Assembly (NCBI RefSeq): GCF_053078305.1
Contig: NZ_CP166879.1
Length of the DNA stretch: 64,000 bases
Strand: one strand, 5' to 3'
How positions within the stretch are numbered: the stretch's first letter is position 1; every line of letters begins with the position of its first letter. Position numbers and translations under genes: made by a program. Below are positions 8,619 through 64,000 of this stretch, in pieces. The notes beneath the pieces were generated by a model. It had not been told where the DNA came from. It did not search any database and worked only from the letters and a program-made list of their open reading frames with translations.

Positions 8619-8727
8619 AATTTCCAAAGTCTGTTCACTGGCATTAGCAACGGAAAATATTGTTCTGAATACGCTTCAGAACAAAACAGGTGCGGTTCCG
8701 ACAGGAATACCGTTTTAGGGGGATAAT

Positions 8728-45327: not shown

Positions 45328-45344
45328 TTCTGCTTTTCAAAACC

Positions 45345-45382
45345 GCCTGTTTTTCTTGTCATGTGTTGTCAGAAAAACAGGC
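45345..45382. terminator. Bidirectional hairpin between narV and the convergent 403-aa gene
   Basis: gcctgttttt ... aaaaacaggc 10-bp stem, followed by TTTTC on the plus strand. Confidence 0.6.
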
Positions 45383-45391
45383 TTTTCAACC

Positions 45392-46603
45392 TTAATGATT
45401 ATCTTCAAACTCTTCCAAAACATATTGAGCATGAAATTGAATACAGGGCCAGGATGAAACTAAACCAGCGCGAGCAGTGGGTACTTCATTGGCGGTGATG
45501 GTGCAAAACCCTCTTCCTGGTGCCATTTCTTTTGCTATGGCTTCAACCAGCTCTGGATGATGACTAAGGACAAACTCTAACGGGGTGTAATCTAAGGGTA
45601 AATGACGTCCGTGGTCCCGAAATGCCAGATATGGAGCTGTTACTCCACGAAGCAAAATTTCTACAGGGAGCTGGGAAATGCGTTCTACCAATAAATTCAT
45701 ATGCCCAAGCCGCGCTATAGCCGCTGCAGCCCAACAGCGGTTACTCCCATCGGCTGTTTGATCGTCCAGCAGGCTTGTCAAAACAGCAATCACATCCTCA
45801 TTAGATTCATTAATTTCTGCAATCAATTTACAGGCATTCCATGCTTTGTCTGCATTTTTAACTTCTTGCAGCAAAGCAGGTAACGCCAGTTGACCTAGTT
45901 GTTTGAGTAATACTTCGTAATCGTCTAAAAGTAGACCCGGCGTTTTTCTGCCAAATATTTGCGCGATTAATTCTGCTATCCGTGCTTGTGAAGGCAAACT
46001 TTTCAGATATTGCCTCTCCTGTTCAGCCTGAGAATATTGAGGAAAATATTGCAATATTTGTTTTTTTGTCAGACTTAACGGGATCAACTCACCAACCTCA
46101 TCAGAGGCTATGGCGATAAAGTTTTTCTCCACTACCCCTTCACGTAAGAGTTGTAGTCGTGCTTTTTTGGCTGCTTTCGGAAAAACACGCAGGAATTGCG
46201 CGTACACCTCATACCAGGCATCAAATGTTCCATTAATAGCAGCGAACTCATGGCATTCATTAGCCCATTGTTCGCATTCTTCGTTAGGTTCATCATTGTA
46301 CTTATGGTCCGCAGGCGACCAGCGTAAGTCCTGTGTGAGTTTTTCTACGTTTTGTGTAAATCCATTTTTCTGATAAGCAGTAACAATAGAGGCCAGGCTT
46401 TCCTCAGTGCCAACTGCCAGACAAGGCCAGTCAATGATGTCCCCATCCCCATAAAAACAATGAAACATGGCACCATAGATATGTTGGCATGGGTGTTCCT
46501 GATGTATATGTTTAACGGAAGCTACCATGTAATTAATGGCAGCCGTTTCCATCCCTTTCCAGTCAAATTGTACTTGCTTCATAAAGCGGTCCGTGTAAGG
46601 CAA
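45392..46603 (-). CDS. Hypothetical protein; C-terminal region resembles HEAT/armadillo-type helical repeats
   Basis: Uninterrupted 403-aa frame convergent with narV; no recognisable catalytic motif. Confidence 0.6.
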   Translation of the reverse strand: MPYTDRFMKQVQFDWKGMETAAINYMVASVKHIHQEHPCQHIYGAMFHCFYGDGDIIDWPCLAVGTEESLASIVTAYQKNGFTQNVEKLTQDLRWSPADHKYNDEPNEECEQWANECHEFAAINGTFDAWYEVYAQFLRVFPKAAKKARLQLLREGVVEKNFIAIASDEVGELIPLSLTKKQILQYFPQYSQAEQERQYLKSLPSQARIAELIAQIFGRKTPGLLLDDYEVLLKQLGQLALPALLQEVKNADKAWNACKLIAEINESNEDVIAVLTSLLDDQTADGSNRCWAAAAIARLGHMNLLVERISQLPVEILLRGVTAPYLAFRDHGRHLPLDYTPLEFVLSHHPELVEAIAKEMAPGRGFCTITANEVPTARAGLVSSWPCIQFHAQYVLEEFEDNH

Positions 46604-46718
46604 TATAGAGAGTTAACCATTTTATCCTGATAGTTATTTCAACATGACTTGCCAAGGATTAATTCAGAAAAGTGCCCTAAACAGGCTATGATAGTTCTCC
46701 AGTCACAGGAGAACGTTA

Positions 46719-48725: not shown

Positions 48726-49295
48726 ATGAGCCGATTCATCCCCATAGAATTACACCATGCCAGCCGTCTGTTAAATCATGGCCCAACTGTCTTGATCACC
48801 AGTTTCGATGAGCAATCCCAGCGGCGTAACATTATGGCTGCAGCCTGGTCAATGCCGGTGGAGTTTGAACCTCCACGCGTGGCGATTGTGGTAGATAAAT
48901 CGACATGGACCAGGGAGTTGATTGAACATAACGGTAAATTTGGCATCGTTATCCCGGGCGTTGCAGCAACTAACTGGACGTGGGCAGTGGGAAGTGTGTC
49001 GGGGCGTGAAGAAGATAAATTTAATTGCTATGGCATTCCGGTTGTGAGAGGCCCGGTATTTGGTTTGCCTCTGGTCGAGGAAAAATGTCTGGCGTGGATG
49101 GAGTGTCGCCTGCTACCTGCGACTTCTGCGCAAGAACAATACGACACACTGTTTGGCGAGGTAGTATCAGCAGCGGCAGACGCACGGGTATTTGTCGAAG
49201 GCCGCTGGCAGTTTGATGATGATAAGCTCAATACGTTGCATCATTTAGGTGCTGGCACGTTTGTTACTAGCGGCAAGCGTGTTACGGCGGGTTAA
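48726..49295 (+). CDS. yddH: Flavin reductase-like domain protein
   Basis: 189 aa from MSRFIPIELHHASRLLNHGPTVLITS. Confidence 0.88.
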   Translation: MSRFIPIELHHASRLLNHGPTVLITSFDEQSQRRNIMAAAWSMPVEFEPPRVAIVVDKSTWTRELIEHNGKFGIVIPGVAATNWTWAVGSVSGREEDKFNCYGIPVVRGPVFGLPLVEEKCLAWMECRLLPATSAQEQYDTLFGEVVSAAADARVFVEGRWQFDDDKLNTLHHLGAGTFVTSGKRVTAG

Positions 49296-49298
49296 GCA

Positions 49299-49526
49299 TT
49301 ACATGCTGTAACCAGGTTTCTTTATCAAAGCCTCCATTTGGGGCGCGATTTCGGCATCCCAGATAGCTTGCCATGATTCTGGTTGAATCTGCTGTAGAGA
49401 AATGCTTATCGAGCTATCTTTACTGTTCAGATGGCGAATAATAACGTCGGTAATATCTGCAGCAAGTGCTGCTTTTTGTTGTTCGTCCAGTTCACGCGGA
49501 AAACATTTAATGTCGATGTGCGGCAT
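49299..49526 (-). CDS. pptA: Tautomerase (4-oxalocrotonate tautomerase family)
   Basis: 75 aa from [28 protein letters not shown] with catalytic Pro at position 2; the ORF track extends it upstream. Confidence 0.9.
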
Positions 49527-49613
49527 GATTGTGCTCCTTTTGAAAGATGTCAGTAAAATTAACACACATTGTGAATGTCGTATGTCCGGTGATGCGTTTT
49601 TACGACAATAATG

Positions 49614-50594
49614 CCAGGGCAAGATTACGAAAGCCTTCTCCCCGCAAGGACTGACGCCAGGTAGTTTCTGTCCATGGCTGCTTTTCGCATCTTACGTCTT
49701 AACCCTGCCTTGAATACCTTATCATTCGTCAAAATATTAATAGCAATGTGCCGTATCCCTGAAAATAATTCTGCTGCATTTCCTCTTCTTATTTTGCAGT
49801 CGTCTTCATTCATTACCACGTCCAGACGCCAGTGCAGCTTATTCTCCACGTGCCAGTGGTTTCGGATTGCTGTGGCGAACTTCTCTGCGGTTAAATCAGC
49901 AGAACTGATATAATATCTGACCGTCATTTCTGGCTCTTTCTTTTGTTCTGCTATTATTGAGCGAAATGAGACTGCCATGCATAATTTCTTCAGCCCTTTC
50001 CATTCAAACGTGAAATCAATAAGTTCATCAGGGATATCGCAGACAATATGGAGACGGATTTTAATGACATGAATCGCTCCCCTGCGGCGACTCTTGTCAT
50101 AAGAGTGCCGGAGCGTTTTTCCATCAATTGCAATGACGTCTTTATCATCTGAAGAATGGCAGTCACGCATCCAGTTAATAAAGCACTCGTGAAATTTTGC
50201 AGGACTGATACAGGATACAACTCTGGCAATGGTATCGTGAACAGGAATACCATTTTCAAAATCACCATATTGCTTCAAAAAATCGAGATGTGTTTCCCCA
50301 AAATCCTCTATATCTTCCCAACCTTCTGCACCAGAAACAACGGCACAAATAATCAACAGTAGAATATCCGATAATTTATGTTCCACTTTCCAGGCTTGTC
50401 TGTAATCGGGGATAATAGAAATATGTTCCATCAATTTTTTAAGTTCCATTTTGTTTCCTTAATTATGTAAGGAGTATTTGATCATGTATAAGCAATAAAA
50501 AACAGCTTTAGGTAATGAGGAACATATCAATTTTTAAACATAAAATGCGAATTATTTAGTACAAAAAGTGTACTTCCGATGATCTTTCCCTGCC
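49614..50594 (-). mobile_element. ydcC: H-repeat (ISAs1-family) element copy 1, transposase with internal deletion
   Basis: 274-aa frame (49625..50449) aligns to both ends of the roughly 378-aa H-repeat transposase but lacks about 100 central residues (junction [17 protein letters not shown]). Confidence 0.75.
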
Positions 50595-50862
50595 ATTAAA
50601 TAATGTCTTATTTGACCTTGCCAACATACAACAAAATAATTGAAATATATTCAAAATTAATTTAAACATTCATCAGGCGTCCTTTTCTAAAAAACCTAAT
50701 CATTTAATGGTTAAATTACAATCAAACAAACAAAGTAAACTGGAATTATAGTTGTGGTGCACTTCACGATTTTAGCATTCTTGCTCCTACATTTATACTC
50801 TCTGCCGCGGAAATTTGTTCTCGAAACTTAACTAAACCCAATCAATCATCCTTGCCTTATCG

Positions 50863-51366
50863 TTACTTGAATTTATCAAGACATTTATCATTGCTGACAC
50901 TTTCAATATTTATATGATATACAGTTCCTGTGTTTGAGATATATACTTCCTTAAGCTTATCAGTTTTACTCTCATTATTATAAAAGTAGCCCCCGATAAT
51001 TTTATTCTTCTTTGATATATAAGTGACAGTGTCAGTATGAACTCCACCATTTATTGTCATAATGAATGAGGCATCCAAGTTCATCGTACTTTCCCCCTTA
51101 AAATATATTTTACCATTAGAAATCACTTTGGTCTCAGAAACACCGTTAGGCTCGTCATTACTAATTAATATAAGTAAATCTACCATTTCGGATTTTTTAT
51201 CTCTTTCTTTATAACCACCAATATCATCCAGGATATTATTTGACACTTTTCCACAAAGCATCACTGAGTAATTATTCAAATTTTTGAGTTGAGAGCACTT
51301 TGCCACAAAAGAGAATGAAATAAATATCAAACCTACCGAAATGATTATTGTTTTTTTAAAATTCAT
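50863..51366 (-). CDS. Exported small protein, candidate immunity protein for the upstream effector
   Basis: 167 aa with N-terminal signal peptide MNFKKTIIISVGLIFISFSFVAKCS; 4 bp downstream of the effector stop; about 27% GC. Confidence 0.55.
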   Translation of the reverse strand: MNFKKTIIISVGLIFISFSFVAKCSQLKNLNNYSVMLCGKVSNNILDDIGGYKERDKKSEMVDLLILISNDEPNGVSETKVISNGKIYFKGESTMNLDASFIMTINGGVHTDTVTYISKKNKIIGGYFYNNESKTDKLKEVYISNTGTVYHINIESVSNDKCLDKFK

Positions 51367-51370
51367 TGTT

Positions 51371-53449
51371 TTAAAGAATCCTTATGTAATTAAGTGGAGG
51401 TGTTATTTCATCATTCAATACATACCAAGAATGCTCAAATGCTGGCCAACGCACTAAATCGAAGCCATCTGCTGCTGGGTTTATTCGCCGTGTAACTTCT
51501 CTGGCATCTGACAAACTACATCCTTTATCCGCCCAATAATTAACGCCTAAACTACCACTAGGTGTCAATCGATGGCTTACCATTATGTATTTTTGCTTAC
51601 TTGCCCAAAAGTATCCCCCGGCATCGCAAGAAAAATAGGCATTTTCAACTGGGAGTTGGTTATTGGGTTCTGTAGTAAAAAAATCATCATCTGACGGATT
51701 TCTATACTTTCCATAATTTCTATAATTCTCACGACCAGTTAGATGTATGGTACCTCTGCCTTTAAATCTTGCACCATCACCAACAACATTATTTCCAAGC
51801 TTAAGTCCCTGTTCTGTTCCTGGCTCATACATATCAAAATAACTCGAATCACCATTCTCTATAAAAGACGCAAATCTGCCTGTTTCTCTCGCCATCTGAC
51901 CGAAATAATGCGCAATCCGCAATGGGGTTGTAATTAAGTACTTCCTTAGTGACTTTGACAGTTCATTTTTCAACCCTGCAGGTCTTATCACCTCACCACT
52001 GCTATTTTGTCCTTGGCTAGTAATCCGCTCAATTAGAGTGTCTTTACTTAATGGTCTTGTAAGTTCTGATGTCATGGGATAAGCATTTTGATAACGTCTT
52101 ACCACACTTATAATATCATTTTCTCCTAACCACCCACATTTCCTGAAATGTGCAATAAACTGCCTGGGATCAAAATGCCATACACGCCTGGCAGGTAACG
52201 GATTATCTACCAAACAAAGCGCCTTACAGTGTTCTATCAGCAAATCCAGGTCAGGCTCTGTCATCGGCTTACTCAATACGTCATTGGGTGATTTCAGCCA
52301 CTCAAACCGTGATTCCACGGTGGCGCTGTCCCATTCTAGCGGAAAATGACAAATCATCCGACTTAGGTCATTGCGGGTTGTACACAGGATTGTTGGTGAA
52401 TTGCACTGGCTGTTGGTGTCCGCATCATCGTTCACCAGTTTCCACCCTGTCCAGTGTGGAAAATCACCGTCGCTGTAAACCCTGATATCTCTCGCCCCTA
52501 AGTTAACAACGCCTTTACCCTGTGGCGTATTGATTGTTCGCCACAGCGGCGCATCCGCCGGGACTAATTCTTCATATTCTGTATTAACAACCCGACCAAA
52601 ACGCAGCATCTCATAACCGGCACTTGGGCTTTTCGGATAGAGTTGCAGCGCGTAGGAATAGAGATTGTATTCATAATCCTTACCATCAGCATTAATCAAG
52701 GGAGAACCTACTTCAGTATAGGTATCACTCAGCACTTCATGCTGCTGACGCGTCACCATCGTACAATTGCCTTTATCAAAACTCATTGTGACATACAATG
52801 GCACGCTGGTTCTTTGTACCGGACTGTTGTTCGCAAGCGAGTTTTCTTCCGGCATGTCCCCATAAATCGGTGTTCCGGCAGGGAGATAAAAATGACTATC
52901 ACCGTAAACCACATCAGTTCGTCCATCTTTATTCAGGTCTGTTTCCGGTGATATTCTTCCTGTGATTTTCTGAATGTTTTCATCATCACAAAAAATCTGA
53001 AAATGAAAGGCGTTCTGTCCGTCCACCATCCCTGCTGCACCAACCGGTTCTTTCCGGTATAGCGTGTTTCCCGGCTGCACATTACTGTCAATGCTTCTCA
53101 GGTGCATATATAATGAGTAATAGACGATTTTACCCTCTTCTCCACTACCGATTTCTGTTTCATGTTTTATCAGAACATAGCCTTTATCCGTAACTCCGTT
53201 ATAATTTAACGGAGGAACTGTATTTTCCGCTGGTTCTGGCTGGCGTATTGAAATAACCTTCCCATCGGCAATACACCTAACAGTCTCTGACAGATTGCCG
53301 TTCAAATGAACTCCACCATGCCAAGAACGACCGCTATTCATTGGGAAATTTCTTTCTGGATCAACAGACATCATTCTGTTTACCCAGTCAGAGTCTTTTT
53401 CAGTGTCTATATGCGCATGCAATATTGGAGGGCTGATTATCATTATCAA
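51371..53449 (-). CDS. Candidate T6SS peptidoglycan-hydrolase effector: M23-like domain plus GH19/lysozyme-like C-terminal domain
   Basis: M23-like block HGGVHL…ADGKVIS…YYSLYMHLRS…GAAGMVDGQNAFHFQIF; GH19-like block YFGQMARETG…GDGARFKGRGTIHLTGRENYRNYG; first gene downstream of vgrG. Confidence 0.6.
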   Translation of the reverse strand: MIMIISPPILHAHIDTEKDSDWVNRMMSVDPERNFPMNSGRSWHGGVHLNGNLSETVRCIADGKVISIRQPEPAENTVPPLNYNGVTDKGYVLIKHETEIGSGEEGKIVYYSLYMHLRSIDSNVQPGNTLYRKEPVGAAGMVDGQNAFHFQIFCDDENIQKITGRISPETDLNKDGRTDVVYGDSHFYLPAGTPIYGDMPEENSLANNSPVQRTSVPLYVTMSFDKGNCTMVTRQQHEVLSDTYTEVGSPLINADGKDYEYNLYSYALQLYPKSPSAGYEMLRFGRVVNTEYEELVPADAPLWRTINTPQGKGVVNLGARDIRVYSDGDFPHWTGWKLVNDDADTNSQCNSPTILCTTRNDLSRMICHFPLEWDSATVESRFEWLKSPNDVLSKPMTEPDLDLLIEHCKALCLVDNPLPARRVWHFDPRQFIAHFRKCGWLGENDIISVVRRYQNAYPMTSELTRPLSKDTLIERITSQGQNSSGEVIRPAGLKNELSKSLRKYLITTPLRIAHYFGQMARETGRFASFIENGDSSYFDMYEPGTEQGLKLGNNVVGDGARFKGRGTIHLTGRENYRNYGKYRNPSDDDFFTTEPNNQLPVENAYFSCDAGGYFWASKQKYIMVSHRLTPSGSLGVNYWADKGCSLSDAREVTRRINPAADGFDLVRWPAFEHSWYVLNDEITPPLNYIRIL

Positions 53450-53590
53450 TAGTCCTTATTAAGCTTATAAAACATGTAACGAGTATGAATTATTCATTCA
53501 CAGAGCATCTCTGCTTAGAAAGCAGAAAATCACAGTATTATTGTATTATTACTACCGTCATCCGTTATCTTTATCTGAATGATTATCCCA

Positions 53591-55737
53591 CTACGAGAAC
53601 ATGAACTTCACTCTGGTCTCATCATTACCGATATCATCATCAGTATTACTATCCGTATCATTAGTGACTAAAGTGTTCAGGACAGTGGGTTGCAGTGTCG
53701 GTACCGGTGTCCCCGGACTCCCCCCACCATTAAGATTTATCTTCGGCCCCACTATATCCACGCCGCCCGGCTGAATAACGATAAACGAGCCACCCACCTT
53801 CAGGCTTATCCGGCTGCTGCTCTCCAGCACGATATCCCCGTCCACCTTTATCCCCAGCGCGCCACTCACCTTCCTCGCCAGGTCCCCCTTCACCACCAGG
53901 CTGTGTTTCCCCTCCACCAGACTGATATGGTTCCCCGTCGTCTTATGCTCCTGCTTCCCTTCCACCGTCACTTTACGGTCGTTTCTGACGTACAGACCGT
54001 CATCGTGACTCACGCTCACCGTCCGGTCATTCGTCACCTTCAGAGTCTGGTCATTACGTACTGTGATACGCCGGTCGTTCGCCACCGTGATACTCTGGTC
54101 GTGGCCCCCTCTTTTTTTGTACCGACCTGAACCGTCTGGCCCTTCACCACCGTTATCTTCTGGTCGTTACCAATGGTTTCCGTGTGGTCATGCTTCACGT
54201 CCGTCGTCCGGTCGTTGAGCACTTCCGTATCCATGTTCTTCTGCGCATGGATATACACCTGCTCATTACTGGTGGCGTCTTCAAACCGCAGCTCGTTAAA
54301 TCCGCTTCCTTTATAGGTTTTTGACCGGATGGTCATCTGCGTCTTCGTTCCCGGCAGGTCGCCCGGCGAACGGTTGTCCTCATGGTACGTCCGCCCCATG
54401 ATTATCGGCTGGTCCGGGTCGCCGTTCAGGAAGTCCACTATCACCTCCTGACCCACCCGCGGTATCGCCAGATTACCGAACCCCGGCCCCGCCCACGCCT
54501 GCGATACACGCACCCAGCATGAACTCGCCTCCGTCATCCCGTGATAACGGTCCCAGTGGAACTTCACCCGTACCCGGCCATGTTCATCGCAGAAGATTTC
54601 CTCTCCCGCAGGCCCGGTGACAATGGTGCTCTGTGGCCCGTCCACCTTCGGTTTGCTTTGCAGCCGTGGACGCCACGTCCGGTCTGCCGGTATCACCTCT
54701 AACTGATTTCCCAGTGTGGTTCCTCTCCCCTGGCTGCCGTGCAACGCCTGCGGCTGGCTTCCTGACAGTATGCTCTGTACCACCTGCCATTCACGGTTCA
54801 GCATCTTCTGCGGATGCCCCGTCAGCGTAAACCGCGTTCCCGGCCACAGCTTCGGTGAATTACTCTGCCCTGTGGCCTTTTCCGCATCACTGCGCAGGCT
54901 GTCCATCTGATACAGCGTGAAATCCTTGCCGTGCTGCTCATCCTTGAACCTTCCCGGATAATCAAATATCTCGTACTGCGCGTGCTGTCCGTTCAGCCTC
55001 TCACCCTGCTGTTCGTATATCCCCGGCCAGTCCGGCACCTTAAACGTGTAATCCTGACTCTGCACCGACGACGGGCGGACATGCGCCTCATAACGGAACA
55101 TACTGAGACACTCCGTCTCCGCTCCTGCCGATGTGTCCGGGTTAAACGGAAGCTCTCCCGCCTGTGACAGCCCCGCCACATCGTCGCACAGCGTCAGCTT
55201 CTGCTCCGGGCTGTCCGCCGCAAACCGCTCAAAGAAGAAAATCCCCTCCTCCGCCCACAGCCGGGACAGAAACGCCAGGTCGCTCTCTCCGTACTGGACA
55301 CAGAACTCCCGCGCCGGATGGTCCTCATAAAACAGCGGCGTCCACTCCGTGACGCCGTTCTCGTTCAGTAACGTGGCCGATATCGTCCGGATATCCTGCT
55401 GCTGAAAAATACGAAAGTTCTGCCGCAGCCCGCACCGCCATAACGGCGGCTCAATACGCAGGTGATAACGCATCTGCCAGCCGTTGTTCTCCTGCATGCC
55501 AAAGCCCGCCACCACGCCAGTGACATAACGCAGCGGAATGACGCCCTGCCAGATGGTCAGCGTTGCGTTCTTCTCCAGCAGCATCTCCGCCGTCTGCATA
55601 AAAGAGTCGCTGGCAACATCCACACTCATCACAAACGGATAAGACTGGTTCTGGATTAACCTGAAATTCACCACTGCAAAGGTGTCCGGCTCCTGGCCGT
55701 CAACCTCCAGCGTAAAGCGAAGACCTTTTAAGGACAT
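53591..55737 (-). pseudogene. vgrG: vgrG (T6SS spike) copy 1, frameshifted
   Basis: ORFs 54040..55737 and 53591..54085 are consecutive VgrG segments in different frames; shift maps to the C5 run at 54105-54109 (N-frame KKEGATT, C-frame GGHDQSITVANDRR; copy 2 reads KKEGGHDQ). Confidence 0.75.
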
Positions 55738-55755
55738 AAATACCTCTCTGGTATA

Positions 55756-56040
55756 TCAGCCTATATTTACCGTGCCGCCACCAATAACCACGCCGCCGCA
55801 GTCAATGGCATCACCGGTTCTGGCGGCGGGCAGGCCGTCAATAAAGACGGTTGAAGAGCCTCTGGCGATTTTTCGGGGATGAGGTGGATGCTTCGGTTTA
55901 GCATGCGGCGTCGGCGGATCTCCCTGACGGGCTGCGGGGAGACCATCGATAAAAACGGTGGATGACCCGGCGGTGATGACGGTCTCGTAATAACCGTCGT
56001 GCTGAGTGCCTTTGTCGGTGAGTTTGGCTGCTAAAGGCAT
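55756..56040 (-). CDS. PAAR-domain protein (T6SS spike tip), copy 1
   Basis: 94 aa with two GLPAAR(Q/T)GD motifs; 18 bp upstream of vgrG copy 1. Confidence 0.85.
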   Translation of the reverse strand: MPLAAKLTDKGTQHDGYYETVITAGSSTVFIDGLPAARQGDPPTPHAKPKHPPHPRKIARGSSTVFIDGLPAARTGDAIDCGGVVIGGGTVNIG

Positions 56041-56395
56041 AATTCCTCCTGTTCAGAATTTCTACAGCAGCAGGTTTCAAAAATCCGGAGAAATATTCAA
56101 CGAAACATTAATCACTTCACCGGATATTCTGACACGTACCTTCACTAGTCTATTTAAGTAATACAAATTGTTGGCGTGTAATACCCCATTCTCCTTTCAT
56201 TATCTTTGCCTTTAAAACAGAAAGTTCTTGAAATATATATTTAAGGAAAAAACCACGATAAACACCACAAGGATAATATAAATCACCAAGTTATCGAAAA
56301 TTTAAAAAATCACGCGTCAGATCTGATAAAAAATAGGCTATCACATGTAACTCCTGGGCGATCTCGCAAAAATTAAATTATAAAAATACATGACG

Positions 56396-57376
56396 CAGGG
56401 CAAGATTACGAAAACCCGCTCCCCGCAAGGACTGACGTCAGGTAGTTTCTGTCCATGGCTGCTTTTCGCATCTTACGTCTTAACCCTGCCCTGGATACCT
56501 TATCATTCATCAAAATATTAATAGCAATGTGCCGTATCCCTGAAAATAATTCTGCTGCGTTTCCTCTTCTTATTTTGCAGTCGTCTTCATTCATTACCAC
56601 GCCCAGACGCCAGTGCAGCTTATTCTCCACGTACCAGTGGTTTCGGATTGCTGTGGCGAACTTCTCTGCGGTTAAATCAGCAGAACTGATATAATATCTG
56701 ACCGTCATTTTGGGATTTTTCTTTTGTTCTGCTATTATTGAGCGAAATGAGACTGCCATGCATAATTTCTTCAGCCCTTTCCATTCAAACGTGAAATCAA
56801 TAAGTTCATCAGGGATATCGCAGACAATATGGAGACGGATTTTAATGACATGAATCACTCCCCTGCGGCGACTCTTGTCATAAGAGTGCCGGAGCGTTTT
56901 TCCATCAATTGCAATGACGTCTTTATCATCTGAAGAATGGCAGTCACGCATCCAGTTAATAAAGCACTCGTGAAATTTTGCAGGACTGATACAGGATACA
57001 ACACTGGCAATGATATCGTGAACAGGAATACCATTTTCAAAATCACCATATCACTTCAAAACATCGGGATGTGTTTCCCCAAAATCCTCTATATCTCCCA
57101 GTCTTATGCACCAGAAATAACGGCGCAAATAGTTAACAGATAGAATATCTGGCAATTTATGTTCCACTTTCCAGGCTTGCCTGTAATCGGGGATAACAGA
57201 AATATGTTCCATCAATTTTTTAAGTTCCATTTTGTTCTCCTTAATTATGTAAGGGGTATTTGATCATGTGTAAGCAATAAAAAACAGCTTCAGGCAATAA
57301 GGAATATCTCAATTTTCAAACATAAAATGTGAATTATTTAGTACAAAAAGTGTACTTCTGATGATCTTTCCCTGCC
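56396..57376 (-). mobile_element. H-repeat (ISAs1-family) element copy 2, degraded
   Basis: About 93-95% identical to copy 1 over about 980 bp with the same internal deletion junction ([17 protein letters not shown]), plus extra frameshifts splitting the frame (ORFs 56406..56951 and 56855..57049). Confidence 0.75.
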
Positions 57377-57453
57377 CTTGTTTATTAGGTATATACCATA
57401 AATACTGAGTATTTTATTGTGCTATTTGTTTATTAAAAATTTGCGAGCAATAA

Positions 57454-57933
57454 TTAAAGATTGCCATCTTCATTGCCGACGAAATAAATATCAAATGAAC
57501 ACTCCAATCCAAGATTAGCCATTATTTTCATCTGCTCAGGCCATAAAGTTGGCCCACCGTGCCAATTCAATGATCTCCAGGTACAGTCAATACCCATTGA
57601 AATATTTTCTAATGCTTGCAATTTTGCAATATTTGATGATTTAGGTCCAAGTTTGTGAAGTAGCCAATCCAGATGTTCTCGAATATCTTTCGAGTTCACT
57701 AGATTTTCTGACGAGAGCATCCAATATGAATTTTTTGCATATCTTTTCTTTCCCGATAGAGTAATAATTTCATCTCCTTTTATATTAATTGATGTTGGCT
57801 CAAGTTCTAAGTGAATACTTATTTCATTAGGGTGAGTATTACCTGTGTAAATCAAGAGGCTAGCATAGCACTCATCACAACTTGGATATTCATGAGATAT
57901 CGGGGTAAGCCTTGATTGTATATTCTTAATCAT
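57454..57933 (-). CDS. Candidate immunity protein for the PAAR-like toxin
   Basis: 159 aa, no signal peptide; start overlaps the toxin stop by 4 bp (ATGA). Confidence 0.5.
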   Translation of the reverse strand: MIKNIQSRLTPISHEYPSCDECYASLLIYTGNTHPNEISIHLELEPTSINIKGDEIITLSGKKRYAKNSYWMLSSENLVNSKDIREHLDWLLHKLGPKSSNIAKLQALENISMGIDCTWRSLNWHGGPTLWPEQMKIMANLGLECSFDIYFVGNEDGNL

Positions 57934-59063
57934 AAATAATCCTCTATGTTTCCTAAAATATTTCCTGAGTCATCAATATAATCACCATTATCAAGTATTC
58001 GACCATGGTGATCACCTCGTAAGCGTAAATCTTTTTTCAACTTTTCTAAAGCTTTCCCCCATTCTCTCCTGTTAATATTTTTACCAAAAAATTCATTTAA
58101 CTCCCTGGCAGTTCTTGCCTCAAGAGTATTACCTCCAGTTTGTAATACTCTCGGAACTCTTCCCGCAGCGCCAACGCTTGGAGGAACAGGAATAGGCAAT
58201 CCATTTGCATCCAGCACAATTTTAGCACCGCTCCTCCCCATTCTGCCAACCGATTTTATTGCAAACTTCGCTGAAAACTTGACCAAACCTTTCACCAGTG
58301 CTCCAACCCCGGTCATAAGTTCCAGCCATGGCTCAACCTCCATCGCCATTGCTTGGGTTTCATTGGCAGGTTTCAACAATGGCTCTCTAGGATCAATAGT
58401 TTCCATTACCTCCCTGTTGGTCTCATTCGCCCGCTCCATAATTTGGGTATCCATCCCCAACCCTCTCGCCAGAGCAATATTACTTTCCATTTGGGCAATG
58501 TCATTTTGCATCTGACCTTTGGCAATCAATGCACCCAACATATACCAGCCATTAATAAATGCCTTGCCTAATCCTATCATTGCATCTGCTTCTTGCTTTT
58601 TGGACTCAAGCTCAAACTCTTGCTGTTGTCTTTGCAGTTCCAGATACCTGGCCCAAAGCGATGATTCTTTAACAGGTATTATCTGATTTGGCAGGTTTGT
58701 CTGGGTATACAGTTTTCCAACAGTATTATCATTATTCATGGCAACCAGCGAAAGATTCCTGGCTACCGGCTTTCCCTTGCACTTTATATGATCCACGCCT
58801 GTCAGTATCCGGCAGTCACCGCTGCCCAGACTGGTGCCAGAACTGACACCTTTCCCGGCATTACTTCGTGTACCTGCAATAATACAGTCCACGGTCAGTA
58901 CTGGATTGCCCCGTGCCCTGACATTGCTGATATAAATTTTCTCATGTGTCAGGTCCTGAAAGCTGTCAAACGGCACTATCGCATCACCAACCTTGCAGAC
59001 ATCAGGCGCAATACATATCGCAACGTACTTCGATTCACGACAACCAATATGATTTTCAGCCAT
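57930..59063 (-). CDS. Candidate T6SS effector: N-terminal PAAR-like (DUF4150-type) domain with C-terminal toxin domain of unassigned family
   Basis: N-terminus CRESKYVAICIAPDVCKVGDAIVPFDSF fits the PDVC…P.P(F/Y) PAAR-like pattern; C-terminal 100 aa basic with a DHHG…N…N segment. Confidence 0.55.
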   Translation of the reverse strand: MAENHIGCRESKYVAICIAPDVCKVGDAIVPFDSFQDLTHEKIYISNVRARGNPVLTVDCIIAGTRSNAGKGVSSGTSLGSGDCRILTGVDHIKCKGKPVARNLSLVAMNNDNTVGKLYTQTNLPNQIIPVKESSLWARYLELQRQQQEFELESKKQEADAMIGLGKAFINGWYMLGALIAKGQMQNDIAQMESNIALARGLGMDTQIMERANETNREVMETIDPREPLLKPANETQAMAMEVEPWLELMTGVGALVKGLVKFSAKFAIKSVGRMGRSGAKIVLDANGLPIPVPPSVGAAGRVPRVLQTGGNTLEARTARELNEFFGKNINRREWGKALEKLKKDLRLRGDHHGRILDNGDYIDDSGNILGNIEDYL

Positions 59064-59997
59064 GAGGTCCCCTCTGCTCCGTCGTCAAAACAATACGTTG
59101 TGGAAGAGAATCCACGGGGAGCGTTAAGCGCCAGAGTAGTGTTAGTTGCTCATCGTCTGTGTGGATGGTCAGTGTGTCAGCCAACAATGGGCGCAGTTCT
59201 ACGTTTTTATCAGAGCGGTAAAACAAATACGCCAATAGTCTAATATCTGGAAGGAAACAAATTTGTTCCATTTTAGAAGGTAATAGGCCGTTCAATATAA
59301 TTTTTTCATTGCCAATTAAATAACCATCGTATTGTTGTTCTGGTGGAGAATAATTCATGAATGCAAAATCGAATTCATCTGGATAAAAAGGTTGAACAGT
59401 CTTTTGCCACTGTTCTGTAAAACCTCTGGCATAGCGCAATCGTGAAGGCCAGCTACGGCAAATAGCTCCTGGTGAGGCAGATAACTGTGGAGCTGGACAG
59501 GGCGATTTATCGCCAAGCGTTATCAGGGAGGGAATAACAATGCCTACAGGATTAAATTCACTGGCTGACGCCAGTTCATGGCGTAACAGTACCCGATCAG
59601 TTAATTCAGGTTCGCTAAGTTGCCAGCGGTTAGATATATATTGCCATTGGCAAGGGCCACATATATCAAATTGGCGCTGAAGATTACCAACCTGTAAACT
59701 GGCCTGCCATCGAGTGGTTTCCCCGGTGGCATGCCATGCGTGTCCATTTAATAAAACATCTGCCCTGACTTTTCTGCAAACCAAATCGGTTGCTGTTTTA
59801 AGACTGCTGCTTTCCGGTTCGCCGTACCAGGAGTCGGTCATCAGTGGCAGTCGCTGCTCATCCGCAATCAGACAGAGACCGCCGCTATATGAAAAATCAA
59901 ATGTCTGATTAACTACCACTACTGTGAATAACTCACCATAATATCCCACTTTTTCGAACTGAAAGTGAGGTAAACCAGTTTCATTTTCAATATTCAT
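59056..59997 (-). CDS. Candidate DUF2169-type adaptor protein
   Basis: 313 aa between vgrG and a PAAR-like effector, overlapping the effector start by 8 bp; family assignment is by context and size. Confidence 0.5.
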   Translation of the reverse strand: MNIENETGLPHFQFEKVGYYGELFTVVVVNQTFDFSYSGGLCLIADEQRLPLMTDSWYGEPESSSLKTATDLVCRKVRADVLLNGHAWHATGETTRWQASLQVGNLQRQFDICGPCQWQYISNRWQLSEPELTDRVLLRHELASASEFNPVGIVIPSLITLGDKSPCPAPQLSASPGAICRSWPSRLRYARGFTEQWQKTVQPFYPDEFDFAFMNYSPPEQQYDGYLIGNEKIILNGLLPSKMEQICFLPDIRLLAYLFYRSDKNVELRPLLADTLTIHTDDEQLTLLWRLTLPVDSLPQRIVLTTEQRGPHG

Positions 59998-60012
59998 GTT
60001 AATTTCTCCAGA

Positions 60013-61977
60013 TTAATCCAGATCAATATCTGCGCCGAAAATATTGATTTTATCTTTTCCTTCAATCTGGATACTTTTACCATTGAGAATGATAGTACCG
60101 TCCTTATTCATTTTCAGTAAGCATTCACCGACTTTAATGGTGAGGCTGTTGGTAACTGTCAGGCTGTAATCTTCTCCAACTTTAATATCCTGGGATTTCA
60201 CGACTTCTTCGGTATCTTTTCCTATTATCTTACTGATTTGATCGTTCCCTACATCCTTGTGACGATCGTGGGTAACATCCAGCCGCTGATCGTTTTGTAC
60301 CGTAATGGTCTGGTCATTCGCCACTGTCACTTTCTGGTCATGACCACCTTCCTTTTTGCTCCCCACATTCACCGTCTGGCCCTTCACCACCGTTATCTTC
60401 TGGTCGTTACCAATGGTTTCCGTGTGGTCATGCTTCACGTCCGTCGTCCGGTCATTCAGCACTTCCGTATCCATGTTCTTCTGCGCGTGAATATAGACCT
60501 GTTCCTTATCTGTGGCGTCCTCAAAGCGCAGCTCGTTAAATCCGCTTCCTTTATAGGTCTTCGACCGGATGGTCATTTGTGTCTTCGTTCCCGGCAGGTC
60601 GCCCGGCGAACGGTTGTCTTCATGGTATGTGCGTCCCGTCACAATGGGCTGGTCCGGGTCGCCGTTCAGAAAGTCCACTATCACCTCCTGACCCACACGC
60701 GGTATCGCCAGATTACCGAACCCCGGCCCCGCCCACGCCTGCGATACACGCACCCAGCATGAACTCGCCTCCGTCATCCCGTGATAACGGTCCCAGTGGA
60801 ACTTCACCCGTACCCGGCCATGTTCATCGCAGAAGATTTCCTCTCCCGCAGGCCCGGTGACAATGGCGCTCTGTGGCCCGTCCACCTTCGGTTTGCTTTG
60901 CAGCCGTGGACGCCACGTCCGGTCTGCCGGTATCACCTCTAACTGATTTCCCAGCGTGGTTCCTCTCCCCTGGCTGCCGTGCAGCGCCTGCGGCTGGCTT
61001 CCTGACAGTATGCTCTGTACCACCTGCCATTCACGGTTCAGCATCTTCTGCGGATGCCCCGTCAGCGTAAACCGCGTTCCCGGCCACAGCTTCGGTGAAT
61101 TACTCTGCCCTGTGGCCTTTTCCGCATCACTGCGCAGGCTCTCCATCTGGTACAGCGTGAAATCCTTGCCGTGCTGCTCGTCCTTGAACCTTCCCGGATA
61201 ATCAAATATCTCGTACTGCTCCAGCTGTCCGTTCAGGTTCTCACCCTGCTGCTCATACATCCCCGGCCAGTCCGGCACCTTAAACGTGTAATCCTGGCTC
61301 TGCACCGACGACGGGCGGACATGCGCCTCATAACGGAACATACTGACACACTCCGTCTCCGCTCCTGCCGATGTATCCGGGTTAAACGGAAGCTCCCCCG
61401 CCTGTGACAGCCCCGCCACATCGTCGCACAGCGTCAGCTTCTGCTCCGGGCTGTCCGCCGCAAACCGCTCAAAGAAGAAAATTCCCTCCTCCGCCCACAG
61501 CCGCGCCAGAAACGCCAGGTCCGACTCCCCGTACTGCACACAGAACTCCCGCGCCGGATGGTCCTCATAATACAGCGGCGTCCACTCCGTGACGCCGTTC
61601 TCGTTCAGTAACGTGGCCGATATCGTCCGGATATCCTGCTGCTGGAAGATACGGAAGTTCTGCCGCAGCCCGCACCGCCATAACGGCGGCTCAATACGCA
61701 GGTGATAACGCATCTGCCAGCCGTTATTCTCCTGCATGCCAAAGCCCGCCACCACGCCGGTGACATAACGCAGCGGGATGACGCCCTGCCAGATGGTCAG
61801 CGTCGCCTTCTTCTCCAGCAGCATCTCCGCCGTCTGCATAAAAGAGTCGCTGGCAACATCCACACTCATCACAAACGGATATGACTGGTTCTGGATTAAC
61901 CTGAAATTCACCACTGCAAAGGTGTCCGGCTCCTGGCCGTCAACCTCCAGCGTAAAGCGCAGACCTTTTAAGGACAT
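60013..61977 (-). CDS. vgrG: VgrG (T6SS spike protein), copy 2, intact
   Basis: 654 aa; N-terminal about 545 aa near-identical to copy 1, followed by gp5-like repeats (VTVANDQTITVQNDQRLDVTHD…). Confidence 0.88.
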   Translation of the reverse strand: MSLKGLRFTLEVDGQEPDTFAVVNFRLIQNQSYPFVMSVDVASDSFMQTAEMLLEKKATLTIWQGVIPLRYVTGVVAGFGMQENNGWQMRYHLRIEPPLWRCGLRQNFRIFQQQDIRTISATLLNENGVTEWTPLYYEDHPAREFCVQYGESDLAFLARLWAEEGIFFFERFAADSPEQKLTLCDDVAGLSQAGELPFNPDTSAGAETECVSMFRYEAHVRPSSVQSQDYTFKVPDWPGMYEQQGENLNGQLEQYEIFDYPGRFKDEQHGKDFTLYQMESLRSDAEKATGQSNSPKLWPGTRFTLTGHPQKMLNREWQVVQSILSGSQPQALHGSQGRGTTLGNQLEVIPADRTWRPRLQSKPKVDGPQSAIVTGPAGEEIFCDEHGRVRVKFHWDRYHGMTEASSCWVRVSQAWAGPGFGNLAIPRVGQEVIVDFLNGDPDQPIVTGRTYHEDNRSPGDLPGTKTQMTIRSKTYKGSGFNELRFEDATDKEQVYIHAQKNMDTEVLNDRTTDVKHDHTETIGNDQKITVVKGQTVNVGSKKEGGHDQKVTVANDQTITVQNDQRLDVTHDRHKDVGNDQISKIIGKDTEEVVKSQDIKVGEDYSLTVTNSLTIKVGECLLKMNKDGTIILNGKSIQIEGKDKINIFGADIDLD

Positions 61978-61995
61978 AAATACCTCTCAGACATA

Positions 61996-62280
61996 TCAGC
62001 CTATATTTACCGTACCGCCACCAATGACCACACCACCACAGTCGATGGCATCACCGGTTCTGGCGGCGGGCAGGCCGTCAATAAAGACGGTTGACGAGCC
62101 TCTGGCGATTTTACGGGGATGAGGGGGATGCTTCGGTTTAGCATGCGGCGTCAGCGGATCTCCCTGGCGGGCTGCGGGGAGACCATCGATAAAAACGGTG
62201 GATGACCCGGCGGTGATGACGGTCTCGTAATAACCGTCGTGCTGGGTGCCTTTGTCGGTGAGTTTGGCTGCTAAAGGCAT
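61996..62280 (-). CDS. PAAR-domain protein, copy 2
   Basis: 94 aa, differs from copy 1 by a single residue; 18 bp upstream of vgrG copy 2. Confidence 0.85.
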   Translation of the reverse strand: MPLAAKLTDKGTQHDGYYETVITAGSSTVFIDGLPAARQGDPLTPHAKPKHPPHPRKIARGSSTVFIDGLPAARTGDAIDCGGVVIGGGTVNIG

Positions 62281-62420
62281 AATTCCTCCTGTTAAGAATT
62301 TCTACAGCAGCAGGTTTCAAAAATCCGGAGAAATATTCAACGAAATATTAATCACTTCACCGGATATTCTGATACGTACCTTCACTGGTCTATTTAAGTA
62401 ATACAAATTGTTGGCGTGTA

Positions 62421-62584
62421 TTAAGTTCCATTTTGTTCTCCTTAATTATGTAAGGAGTATTTGATCATGTATAAGCAATAAAAACAGCTTCAGGAAATAA
62501 GGAATATCGCAATTTTTAAACATAAAATGCGAATCGTTCAATACAAAAAAGCAGCGTTGCGTAATCTTTCCCTGATTAAATACG
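62421..62584 (-). repeat. Orphan 5'-end remnant of an H-repeat element
   Basis: About 160 bp matching the 5' terminus and transposase start region of copies 1 and 2 (ttaagttccattttgtt…ctttccctg); no downstream body. Confidence 0.65.
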
Positions 62585-62819
62585 CTACCGCCCTACTCTG
62601 ATGACATGATCTGCACTGCACTATCATATCGACATGTTTCTCTACATGCGAAGAGATGTTTTATTTTCGGATTATATTAAATTGATATTTCATATAAAAA
62701 ACGAAATTACATCAATCATATAAATAATTGTATCAACTTTAATTACTATTCATAGCAAACAAATGGATATCCAGTTAACTACGCCAGTGATTCATTAACA
62801 TTAACCTCCGGCATTATTG

Positions 62820-63437
62820 TTAAATAATGACATTCCTTTTTAATACTTCTTGTAATTTCGGTAACTGACATACAGCATCAGCAATCGCACTGATATTTGT
62901 GGCATTATCCTGAAACCATTCATGCCCAGGCCCCCATGTGCGCATAGTGCAAAGATAACAGTCCACCAGCGTTAGTTGCTCACCAAACGCATAAGGTTCA
63001 GCGGTCAATTGTGAATTCAGCCAGATATAAAGCGATTTACGATATTCAATAACATTCTTCTTTAACTGTTCGGGTGCGTCAGGAGCCCAACGCTCAGGGT
63101 AATCGGCGAAAGTGAATGTTGGATAGACATTAGCAACCAGCCAGACCAATAGCCGTTGAAACTGCTGACGTTCGGCGCGCCCAACCGGTGGCGCAAGGTC
63201 CGGGCGACGATCGAGAACCATCAATGCAATCGCCGCTGTCTCCGTCATAATCTCGTCATTTTCCAGCGCCAGTGTCGGAATCTGACACAACGGGTTCAGG
63301 GTTTTCAATAACTCGCGTGAAGTTCCCTCGTGGTCAAAACCACTGACATCAACGAACTGATAAGGAATATCAGCCAGTGTTAGCATCAGCTCACTGATTG
63401 TAGAGCCCCATCCGGGTACGCCATACACCTTAATCAT
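62820..63437 (-). CDS. yncG: Glutathione S-transferase homologue
   Basis: 205 aa from MIKVYGVPGWGSTISELMLTLADIPYQFVDV. Confidence 0.85.
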   Translation of the reverse strand: MIKVYGVPGWGSTISELMLTLADIPYQFVDVSGFDHEGTSRELLKTLNPLCQIPTLALENDEIMTETAAIALMVLDRRPDLAPPVGRAERQQFQRLLVWLVANVYPTFTFADYPERWAPDAPEQLKKNVIEYRKSLYIWLNSQLTAEPYAFGEQLTLVDCYLCTMRTWGPGHEWFQDNATNISAIADAVCQLPKLQEVLKRNVII

Positions 63438-63703
63438 ATGCCCCTCACAATCTTTTAAAGATTAAGTGTAGGACAGTACACAGGTTAACCAGCAAAAGGA
63501 TTTGTCATTTTTTCGTCAGTTGTATTAATCCCCTTCAGGATTGTAAGGGGATGTTTTGCATCGTTTATCGATAACGGGTAGGATGCTGCGCCGATAGTTT
63601 TATACCCATAAAGAATAATGGTGATAACTATCATCGCCAGGATGAATAAACATTGTTCATGGCAACTTATATGACTTTTTCATTAAAGCAATCAGGGAGA
63701 GCA

Positions 63704-64000
63704 ATGAGTAAACACGACACCGACACTTCAGATCAACACGCCGCGAAACGCCGCTGGCTTAATGCCCACGAAGAGGGGTATCACAAAGCGATGGGCAATC
63801 GCCAGGTACAGATGATCGCCATTGGCGGCGCGATTGGCACCGGCTTGTTTTTAGGTGCAGGAGCCCGACTGCAAATGGCGGGTCCAGCACTGGCACTGGT
63901 TTATTTAATTTGTGGCTTGTTTTCGTTTTTTATTCTGCGTGCATTGGGTGAGCTGGTGCTACACCGCCCTTCCAGTGGCAGTTTTGTCTCTTATGCCCGT
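63704..64000 (+). CDS. ansP: L-asparagine permease, 3' end outside window
   Basis: Reads [53 protein letters not shown]… and runs open to the window end; APC-family N-terminal motif. Confidence 0.88.

Follow-up and report, generated by a model that had tools for sequence, protein, structure and literature searches.

A two-cassette array of auxiliary type VI secretion vgrG modules at the yncG-pptA site of Escherichia coli, probably remodelled by homologous recombination

Orphan toxin/immunity arrays of the Rhs and contact-dependent inhibition (CDI) systems and the auxiliary clusters of Vibrio cholerae share a common build, in which a conserved 5' part goes with variable tips and displaced modules. 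For E. coli, vgrG islands with VT effector/immunity modules were described by Ma et al. (2018, BBA Gen Subj 1862:1635), a work taken here in the form in which later papers cite it (PMC6730261, PMC7216683, PMC10711316). Orphan immunity genes have been reviewed (PMC6730261), and catalogues from other genera, including Ralstonia, list auxiliary vgrG clusters in which vgrG has decayed, immunity genes are orphaned, and insertion sequence (IS) flanks and recombination occur (PMC11481896). Genes for DUF2169 proteins are found together with those for VgrG and DUF4150/PIPY, and a spike complex of this kind depends on them (PMC11883445; PMC13373197). The WHIX secretion domain, named after its WHxxxH motif, was non-toxic on its own in Aeromonas, where it bound the last 14 residues of the upstream VgrG (PMC12135965). 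Here we analysed 64,000 nucleotides of E. coli DNA (RefSeq assembly GCF_053078305.1, contig NZ_CP166879.1; this whole stretch is called the window), in which about 13 kb between pptA and yncG carry two PAAR-vgrG-effector/immunity cassettes, A and B, together with H-repeat elements. We conclude, with a probability of roughly 80%, that two auxiliary type VI secretion system (T6SS) vgrG island cassettes form an array here, at the yncG-pptA hot spot, which is the rhsE site of K-12, and that this array has been remodelled by homologous recombination.

An earlier note on this DNA had described tandem PAAR-vgrG-effector/immunity modules, each followed by an H-repeat, plus a third H-repeat end, and the open reading frame (ORF) map together with self-BLAST confirmed this layout nearly to the base (Table 1). 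The minus-strand order is identical in the ORF listing of the window and in the RefSeq annotation of strain A16, to which window positions 49000-63500 are 99.9% identical; that annotation also agrees with the gene names used here. When positions 49000-64000 were compared with themselves by BLAST, the two front ends were found to share 94.8% identity over 2138 bp, whereas the sequences between the repeats of cassettes A and B were unrelated, just as the note had claimed for a shared front end with differing cargo. The front-end and H-repeat repeats are long and of high identity, and are not a matter of chance. G+C content was 56-61% in the front ends and 30-34% across the immunity genes. The note had also placed rhsE at the same site in K-12, and this was borne out: the counterpart locus reads yncG-yncH-rhsE (pseudogene)-ydcD-yncI-ydcC-pptA. 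DNA matches between the window and this K-12 locus were confined to the flanks and the ydcC H-repeat, and no DNA similarity to rhsE or ydcD was found. No cargo ORF matched any family at E ≤ 0.01 in the curated profile search, and the locus has no Rhs/YD core. The locus type is already annotated, and the NCBI pipeline names most of its genes.

Table 1. Features of the yncG-pptA region, in window coordinates
Feature	Position	Strand	Remark
pptA	49299-49526		
H-repeat copy 1	49615-50597	-	orthologous to K-12 ydcC; downstream homology arm
167-aa ORF, immunity candidate to effector B	50863-51366	-	
Effector B, 690 aa	51371-53443	-	database name 'M23 family metallopeptidase'
VgrG-B pseudogene, 2147 nt	53591-55737	-	TIGR03361 match; frameshifted
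Front end of cassette B (leader, PAAR-B, VgrG-B codons 1 to ~565)	54047-56183	-	self-BLAST
PAAR-B, 94 aa	55756-56040	-	NF033420
AT-rich inter-cassette spacer, 212 bp	56184-56395	-	between H-repeat copy 2 and PAAR-B leader
H-repeat copy 2, both ends, 312-bp internal deletion	56396-57379	-	RefSeq: 'frameshifted; internal stop'
DUF4279 protein, 159 aa, presumed immunity to effector A	57454-57933	-	PF14106
Effector A, PAAR-like toxin, 377 aa	57930-59063	-	PF13665
DUF2169 accessory protein, 313 aa	59056-59997	-	PF09937
VgrG-A, 654 aa, intact	60013-61977	-	TIGR03361
Front end of cassette A (143-nt leader, PAAR-A, first ~565 VgrG-A codons)	60286-62423	-	upstream homology arm
PAAR-A, 94 aa	61996-62280	-	NF033420; RefSeq WP_001127493.1
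H-repeat (ISAs1/ISEc1-type) 5' end stub	62421-62582	-	fused directly to PAAR-A leader
yncG	62820-63437		

Profile searches placed both PAAR and both VgrG proteins above curated cut-offs. PAAR-A and PAAR-B, which differ at one residue, scored 157.8 and 153 bits against NF033420 (cut-off 124), each over its full length (residues 1-94). VgrG-A scored 601 bits and the 565-aa N-terminal ORF of VgrG-B 593 bits against TIGR03361 (cut-off 186). The gene calls of the earlier note all held, with the correction that VgrG-B is a pseudogene, in which a run of six G residues (G6) has been reduced to five (G5). Compared with the intact 715-aa allele of ECNB21-M121, the sole indel was the loss of this one G at window positions 54105-54109, and RefSeq likewise flags the A16 gene as 'frameshifted'. 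VgrG-A combines the VgrG/TssI profile with an intact frame, while VgrG-B has the profile only. The last ~90 aa of VgrG-A are specific to its cassette, and the intact VgrG-B allele ends in the tail ETRVKFMFS. Among the nine loci compared, the G5 state was seen in the window, A16, AHM8C160RI, 1504D004 and ES5, and the G6 state in ECNB21-M121, 32F4, 23CRST031 and A30. The carriers of G5 are A+B arrays and their derivatives; because G5 is confined to these, the lesion looks inherited once, and not switched back and forth.

The two larger H-repeats share 95.2% identity over 985 bp and are 94-97% identical to the ydcC H-repeat of K-12; each cassette has an H-repeat downstream of its toxin/immunity part, as Rhs elements do. 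Copy 1 runs directly into the pptA flank, at precisely the junction that ydcC has in K-12. Both copies lack the same 312 bp (104 codons; K-12 locus positions 9205-9516) with identical breakpoints, and because of this they are copies of one defective element rather than separate insertions. The third end matches the other two at 86-92% (91.5% to 57220-57349 and 86% to 50439-50602) and K-12 ydcC H-repeat positions 8698-8827 at 93.8%; it consists of the terminal inverted repeat and the 5' leader, and reaches 11 nt into the transposase ORF. An intact ISAs1-family element (~1291 bp, with a transposase of ~378 aa) was not found here, only the two deleted copies and this stub of ~160 bp. No direct repeats flanking either copy were seen in the junction sequences. 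The 212-bp spacer was present in all five fetched tandem arrays, whatever their cargo, and was found in tandem arrays only.

The 312-bp deletion is in frame, and in copy 1 it leaves a 274-aa ORF (49625-50449; RefSeq ISAs1 family transposase WP_000420746.1) that is identical in A16, 1504D004, ES5 and PS10-3. The inter-cassette copy (window equivalent 56406-57230) has an open frame in ECNB21-M121. Each H-repeat 5' end also contains a sigma-70-like site (TATACA, 16-17 nt, CATAAT) on the minus strand, at 62445-62473, 57244-57272 and 50462-50490. The site in the upstream stub would read into PAAR-A; the number of such sites is at chance level, and the site is only a lead.

We then compared the locus among 5426 complete E. 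coli genomes, counting matches of at least 80% query coverage. The front end occurred in 681 genomes and the yncG-side junction with the H-repeat stub in 695. The inter-cassette junction that marks tandem arrays was found in 118, cassette A cargo in 120 and cassette B cargo in 19. The full A+B arrangement was present in four genomes, or in six when IS2-disrupted copies are counted, namely AHM8C160RI and its twin AHM8C212RI, in which IS2 lies between VgrG-B and effector B.

Several relatives of the array record how it has changed. Strain 1504D004 has cassette B only, and its front end shows 0 differences from the B copy of the window through the first 400 alignment columns; in the ~1750 columns that follow, each 200-column block differs from the A copy at 0-1 positions. 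1504D004 thus arose by a precise crossover within the tandem array, which removed the cargo of cassette A along with H-repeat copy 2, and because its front end is an exact A/B chimera, the A and B front ends do recombine. Of VgrG-B, A30 has kept just the 3' part, from window position 54377 on, preceded by an H-repeat stub and followed by effector B and the 167-aa ORF, and this orphan fragment lies downstream of a different PAAR-VgrG-DUF2169 cassette; it mirrors an Rhs orphan tip. In ECNB21-M121 and 32F4 the M23 cassette comes first, with its VgrG intact, followed by the same H-repeat and spacer and then by a truncated VgrG with C39/Cpi1 and M35 genes, so that different cargo modules appear to be stacked behind the truncated VgrG. 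FDAARGOS_1267 and many others carry cassette A and then an M35 cassette. Cargo and order at this locus differ between strains, and the proposal of the earlier note, an Rhs-element logic built on VgrG, is backed by the chimeric front end, the orphan fragment of A30 and the varying cassette order and cargo. In 32F4 (locus positions 2957-3557) and ECNB21-M121 (4459-5059) the gene upstream of the M35 peptidase gene has a C39 cysteine-peptidase domain; the annotation of 32F4 calls the small gene beside it 'cysteine protease immunity protein Cpi1', and that of ECNB21-M121 has 'hypothetical protein'.

An auxiliary island calls for a machine elsewhere in the genome. Window positions 1-45329 are collinear, at 98.9% identity, with an annotated stretch of PS10-3 that runs from ydeM through narI and holds housekeeping genes only; by collinearity with annotated PS10-3, no T6SS structural genes lie in the window, in line with the earlier note. 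In A16 (NZ_CP028758.1, 998-1034 kb) a complete T6SS cluster adjoins the aspV tRNA gene. It contains tssA, B, C, E, F, G, H, J, K and M and a DotU-type gene (annotated icmH), as well as tagH, vasI, a VasL-domain gene, two hcp genes and one vgrG, and none of these is flagged as a pseudogene. Past this core lie genes for VgrG, DUF6484, DUF2169, DUF4150 and further PAAR-like cargo, and then a full-length but stop-containing ISAs1 H-repeat. The VgrG of the aspV cluster was 94-100% identical to VgrG-A and to the intact VgrG-B allele over the first ~500 residues, as would be expected of interchangeable spikes for one machine. Beyond ~500 aa, identity between VgrG-A and the aspV VgrG fell to 76, 58, 46 and 20% in successive 50-column blocks, and all three VgrGs diverge. 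The locus thus has the marks of an auxiliary vgrG island, with vgrG and adjacent effector/immunity genes away from tss genes and a core T6SS in A16, and the auxiliary status proposed in the earlier note is supported by the complete aspV system and the matching VgrG base. The aspV cluster of A16 also shows the same cargo-then-H-repeat layout as the yncG-pptA cassettes.

Cassette A has five intact genes, which overlap or follow one another closely in an operon-like arrangement. The DUF2169 protein matched PF09937 (Pfam, E 3.5e-49) and may, by analogy with the role reported in PMC11883445, serve as a chaperone for PAAR-like/PIPY spike tips. Effector A begins with a PAAR-like (DUF4150/PIPY-type) domain, which a helical linker joins to a toxin domain of ~85 aa at the C-terminus. 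Its PAAR-like domain matched PF13665 (Tox-PAAR-like, E 2e-10), and residues 1-252, which include this domain, aligned with the N-terminal part of 8qjc, a T6SS Rhs effector of solved structure (E 1.4e-15). The order vgrG, DUF2169, PAAR-like, with the two family matches PF09937 and PF13665, is that of a DUF2169-PIPY spike tip; at the position of the PIPY motif effector A reads IVPF where 8qjc has PVPY, as judged from a pairwise alignment. A search of 5.8 billion proteins returned only five homologues of the C-terminal domain; one is a fragment that its database entry calls filamentous hemagglutinin. The DUF4279 protein matched PF14106 (E 2e-18), its start overlaps the stop of effector A by 4 nt, and it is presumed to be the immunity protein to effector A; because it has no signal sequence, a cytoplasmic target of effector A is suggested. 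NCBIfam and PADLOC searches of the cargo and immunity ORFs of both cassettes returned nothing. Cassette A cargo was at least 99% identical in 121 of 122 matching records.

Cassette A holds a canonical PAAR protein as well as the PAAR-like effector, and each of them would be expected to sit on the tip of the same VgrG. It may be that the canonical PAAR is just carried along as part of the conserved front end.

Three domains are predicted for effector B: a degenerate M23-like one at the N-terminus, one in the middle and, at the C-terminus, a GH19-like peptidoglycan glycosidase. The N-terminal Pfam match, to PF01551 (Peptidase_M23), is weak (E 3e-4). M23 metallopeptidases bind their catalytic zinc through HxxxD and HxH motifs. 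These motifs are not complete in effector B: in an alignment of 21 diverse homologues, the family-wide residues are WHGGxH and HFQ, and since the Asp and the last His are replaced, the name 'M23 family metallopeptidase' probably applies at the level of the fold only and misstates the chemistry. Residues invariant in the 21 homologues are W41, H42, G43, G44, H46, E520 and E529. The motif WHGGVH (residues 43-48 of the 692-aa ORF), in which W, H and H are invariant, agrees with WHIX region 1. As a reference for WHIX we used the first 452 residues of the V. alginolyticus effector WP_005373349.1, recovered from the structure file of PMC12135965. Residues 35-117 of effector B aligned to its residues 27-122 (BLASTP, E 4e-8), and the effector B family profile matched the same V. 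alginolyticus residues with 96% probability (hhalign, E 4e-9). At the other end, residues 497-616 matched the PWe2 endolysin 9ms7 (phmmer, E 7e-10), with further matches to 9hnv and Endolysin A (E 5e-6 to 2e-5) and weaker ones to SPN1S-type lysins, and the lysin-like motif KGRGxIxLTGRxNY is present. Lysin similarity and the invariant E520 and E529 place this domain as GH19-like at the sequence level; no Pfam GH19 match was obtained for effector B. Because of the region 1 homology, the GH19-like C-terminus and the VgrG-B tail, we read effector B as a putative WHIX-like cargo effector whose toxic part would be the GH19-like domain.

The family of effector B comprises more than 869 clusters across Enterobacterales and Chromobacterium. 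For one homologue, the Pfam family PF28347 is recorded. Database entries of several homologues bear the names 'hydroxyethylthiazole kinase', 'kinase' or 'Pyocin R, lytic enzyme', and these look like annotation errors that have spread across the family. The 167-aa ORF starts 4 nt past the effector B stop, accompanies effector B in every fetched locus and has, by eye, a hydrophobic N-terminus (MNFKKTIIISVGLIFISFSFVA...). It matched no family in the curated profile search and is presumed to be a periplasmic immunity protein to effector B. Both genes are intact in the window; in ES5, effector B is frameshifted.

From these observations we infer how loading, toxin activity, immunity and expression might work at this locus. 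Each unit would supply a PAAR tip and a VgrG spike, and because the first ~500-565 VgrG residues are nearly the same as those of the core-cluster VgrG, the spikes could be mounted on the aspV machine. The divergent VgrG C-terminus and the neighbouring genes would then decide the cargo. For cassette A, VgrG-A, the DUF2169 chaperone and the PAAR-like effector may form a non-canonical spike tip with a short polymorphic toxin on it; this toxin would probably act in the cytoplasm and be neutralised by the DUF4279 protein. For cassette B, the WHIX-like N-terminal module of the effector may clasp the C-terminal tail of VgrG-B, so that the GH19-like domain could cut peptidoglycan in the prey periplasm, with immunity given by the exported 167-aa protein. 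Since VgrG-B is broken by the one-base deletion, cassette B most likely no longer attacks, and would still be a supply of immunity and a reservoir of cargo. The array itself is most probably built and remodelled by homologous recombination between the 2.1-kb front ends and between the ~1-kb H-repeats, and not by transposition.

The observations that would speak for transposition come from the H-repeats themselves. If H-repeat (ISAs1-family) transposition had assembled the array, a cassette with its H-repeat would be, or would once have been, a mobile unit or composite transposon. An H-repeat with both terminal inverted repeats indeed follows each cassette, and there is a third end upstream. 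An ISAs1 element closes the core T6SS cluster of A16 as well, and for Ralstonia it has been proposed that IS-flanked auxiliary clusters are composite transposons (PMC11481896). However, the shared 312-bp loss, with a frameshift in copy 2 besides, points to one defective element, the junctions show no flanking direct repeats, and copy 1 sits at the ancestral ydcC position beside pptA as in K-12. Moreover, 1504D004 is explained by front-end recombination alone, and we consider assembly by transposition improbable. A somewhat greater, though still small, chance is given to the idea that both cassettes are silent relics, in a locus that decays like K-12 rhsE and plays no role in competition. The frameshift in VgrG-B, the degenerate H-repeat copy 2, the frameshifted effector B of ES5 and the IS2, ISEc40 and IS1 insertions in related arrays all have the look of decay, and E. 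coli T6SS clusters are reported to be lost in some lineages and repressed in vitro in EHEC (enterohaemorrhagic E. coli). In contrast, all five cassette A genes are intact and operon-like, their cargo is nearly invariant among the matching records, effector B and its immunity candidate are intact, and A16 has a complete core T6SS. The G5/G6 tract of VgrG-B might, lastly, be a reversible or translationally bypassed switch, so that some of the cells would still deploy cassette B. In its favour, the lesion alters a single base within a homopolymer context (A7-G-A-G5), and both states occur in nature; however, a run of 5-6 nt is short for phase variation, and no frameshift-stimulating signal was noticed, none having been searched for. 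With G5 confined to A+B arrays and their deletion derivatives, phase variation of this tract was judged unlikely, and a switch of either kind is the least probable of these explanations, very unlikely in our view.

Several points weigh against the array as we read it, that is, as a set of auxiliary T6SS cassettes remodelled by recombination. That this genome has a core T6SS is inferred from strains whose 99.9% identity extends over just the locus, with the left flank at 98.9% to PS10-3. The competition of a canonical PAAR and a PAAR-like effector for one VgrG tip is unexplained. For effector B, neither BLASTP nor hhalign gave a significant alignment to WHIX region 2 (reference residues 271-476), with a single reference that ends at residue 452, and the accession of the effector is not in the tree file of the WHIX authors, nor are five related accessions in their files, the uncut tree file included. 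The toxin domain of effector A matched nothing in Pfam, in PDB sequences (by profile) or by fold. The 212-bp spacer cannot be derived by simple unequal crossover of two single-cassette alleles, and the origin of the first tandem is therefore unexplained. Finally, scanning for promoters and terminators gave chance numbers (27 sites where 26.5 were expected, and 12 where 11.9 were), a result that also fits the silent-relic explanation.

A wider reading, which we hold only tentatively and as a minority view, is that the PAAR-VgrG base and the defective H-repeat act as homology arms of a cassette-exchange platform common to several E. coli loci, namely the yncG-pptA array, the aspV core cluster with its own terminal H-repeat, and the Rhs elements of the classical kind. 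If so, Rhs tips and VgrG cargo modules would recombine within a single pool, and displaced cassettes such as cassette B would be immunity stores, the VgrG-based counterpart of Rhs/CDI orphan arrays. On such a platform, the open frame of the deleted H-repeat could even have been retained for a role in cassette exchange.

Two observations concern other parts of the window. Relative to PS10-3, an insertion of ~1.35 kb (45330-46681) lies between narI (narV) and yddE and encodes a 403-aa minus-strand ORF (45392-46603), which RefSeq names DUF4303 domain-containing protein. It was found in only 4 of the 5426 genomes, with 100% identity in ET350 and D8, and these two strains are not among the four with the full A+B array at the coverage used. 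At PS10-3 locus positions 36196-38183, the annotation gives a type III secretion system leucine-rich-repeat effector gene (espR1) and a leucine-rich-repeat pseudogene beside ompC and narU; by collinearity this stretch corresponds to about 34800-36900 of the window, whose coordinates are ~1311 lower.

In summary, one 13-kb stretch and its relatives show E. coli varying its contact-dependent weapons through a near-invariant spike base, interchangeable cargo and recombining tandem copies. The current picture of T6SS auxiliary modules is unchanged by the locus. It offers two candidate E. coli effector/immunity pairs for study, one with a WHIX-like/GH19-like putative wall hydrolase and one with a PIPY-borne toxin domain, and the G5 and G6 forms of VgrG-B are a natural allele pair with which to ask if immunity is what preserves a cassette whose spike is dead. 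In a literature coverage that was partial, and with no claim of novelty, we found no published description of the tandem layout with H-repeat and spacer as a fixed linker, of the exact recombinant derivative, or of the WHIX-like nature of the 'M23' effector.

The comparison with known systems can now be made feature by feature. Like the E. coli vgrG islands, as far as the citing papers describe them, the cassettes have a VgrG with a downstream effector/immunity pair away from the core cluster, are polymorphic among strains and include a candidate peptidoglycan-targeting effector; judged by eye, effector B lacks the GLxQ motif that these sources report for VT5. The vgrG2-rhsE island of EHEC occupies the same site, and its vgrG likewise has a downstream toxin/immunity pair. 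The RhsE element of K-12 shares the yncG-pptA position and the ydcC H-repeat beside pptA, and has an rhsE remnant there. Unlike both, the cassettes described here have no Rhs/YD-repeat core, and a canonical PAAR gene precedes each vgrG; to EHEC-type VgrG genes the front end matches only at ~77% over ~700 nt. Effector B resembles the WHIX effectors (Fridman et al. 2025, PMC12135965) in its place directly downstream of a tailed VgrG, its invariant WHxxxH, its region 1 homology, its C-terminus of the chitinase/GH19-like kind, which is the commonest WHIX cargo, and the signal-like N-terminus of the ORF that follows it. It differs in length, with 690 aa against 899 aa for the listed E. coli WHIX effectors, and in that region 2 went undetected. 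Cassette A has the same order as the VgrG-DUF2169-DUF4150 (PIPY) complexes, Tvp class I (PMC11883445, PMC13373197), namely vgrG, DUF2169, a PAAR-like effector with a C-terminal toxin, and immunity, and differs from them by IVPF at the PIPY motif and by the canonical PAAR gene upstream. With the arrays of Rhs, CDI, V. cholerae and Ralstonia the locus has in common the conserved 5' part, the variable tips, the displaced modules that keep their immunity genes, the decayed vgrG and homologous exchange. What sets it apart from these is that the repeated unit is a PAAR and VgrG base, and that the repeat downstream of it is a defective H-repeat.

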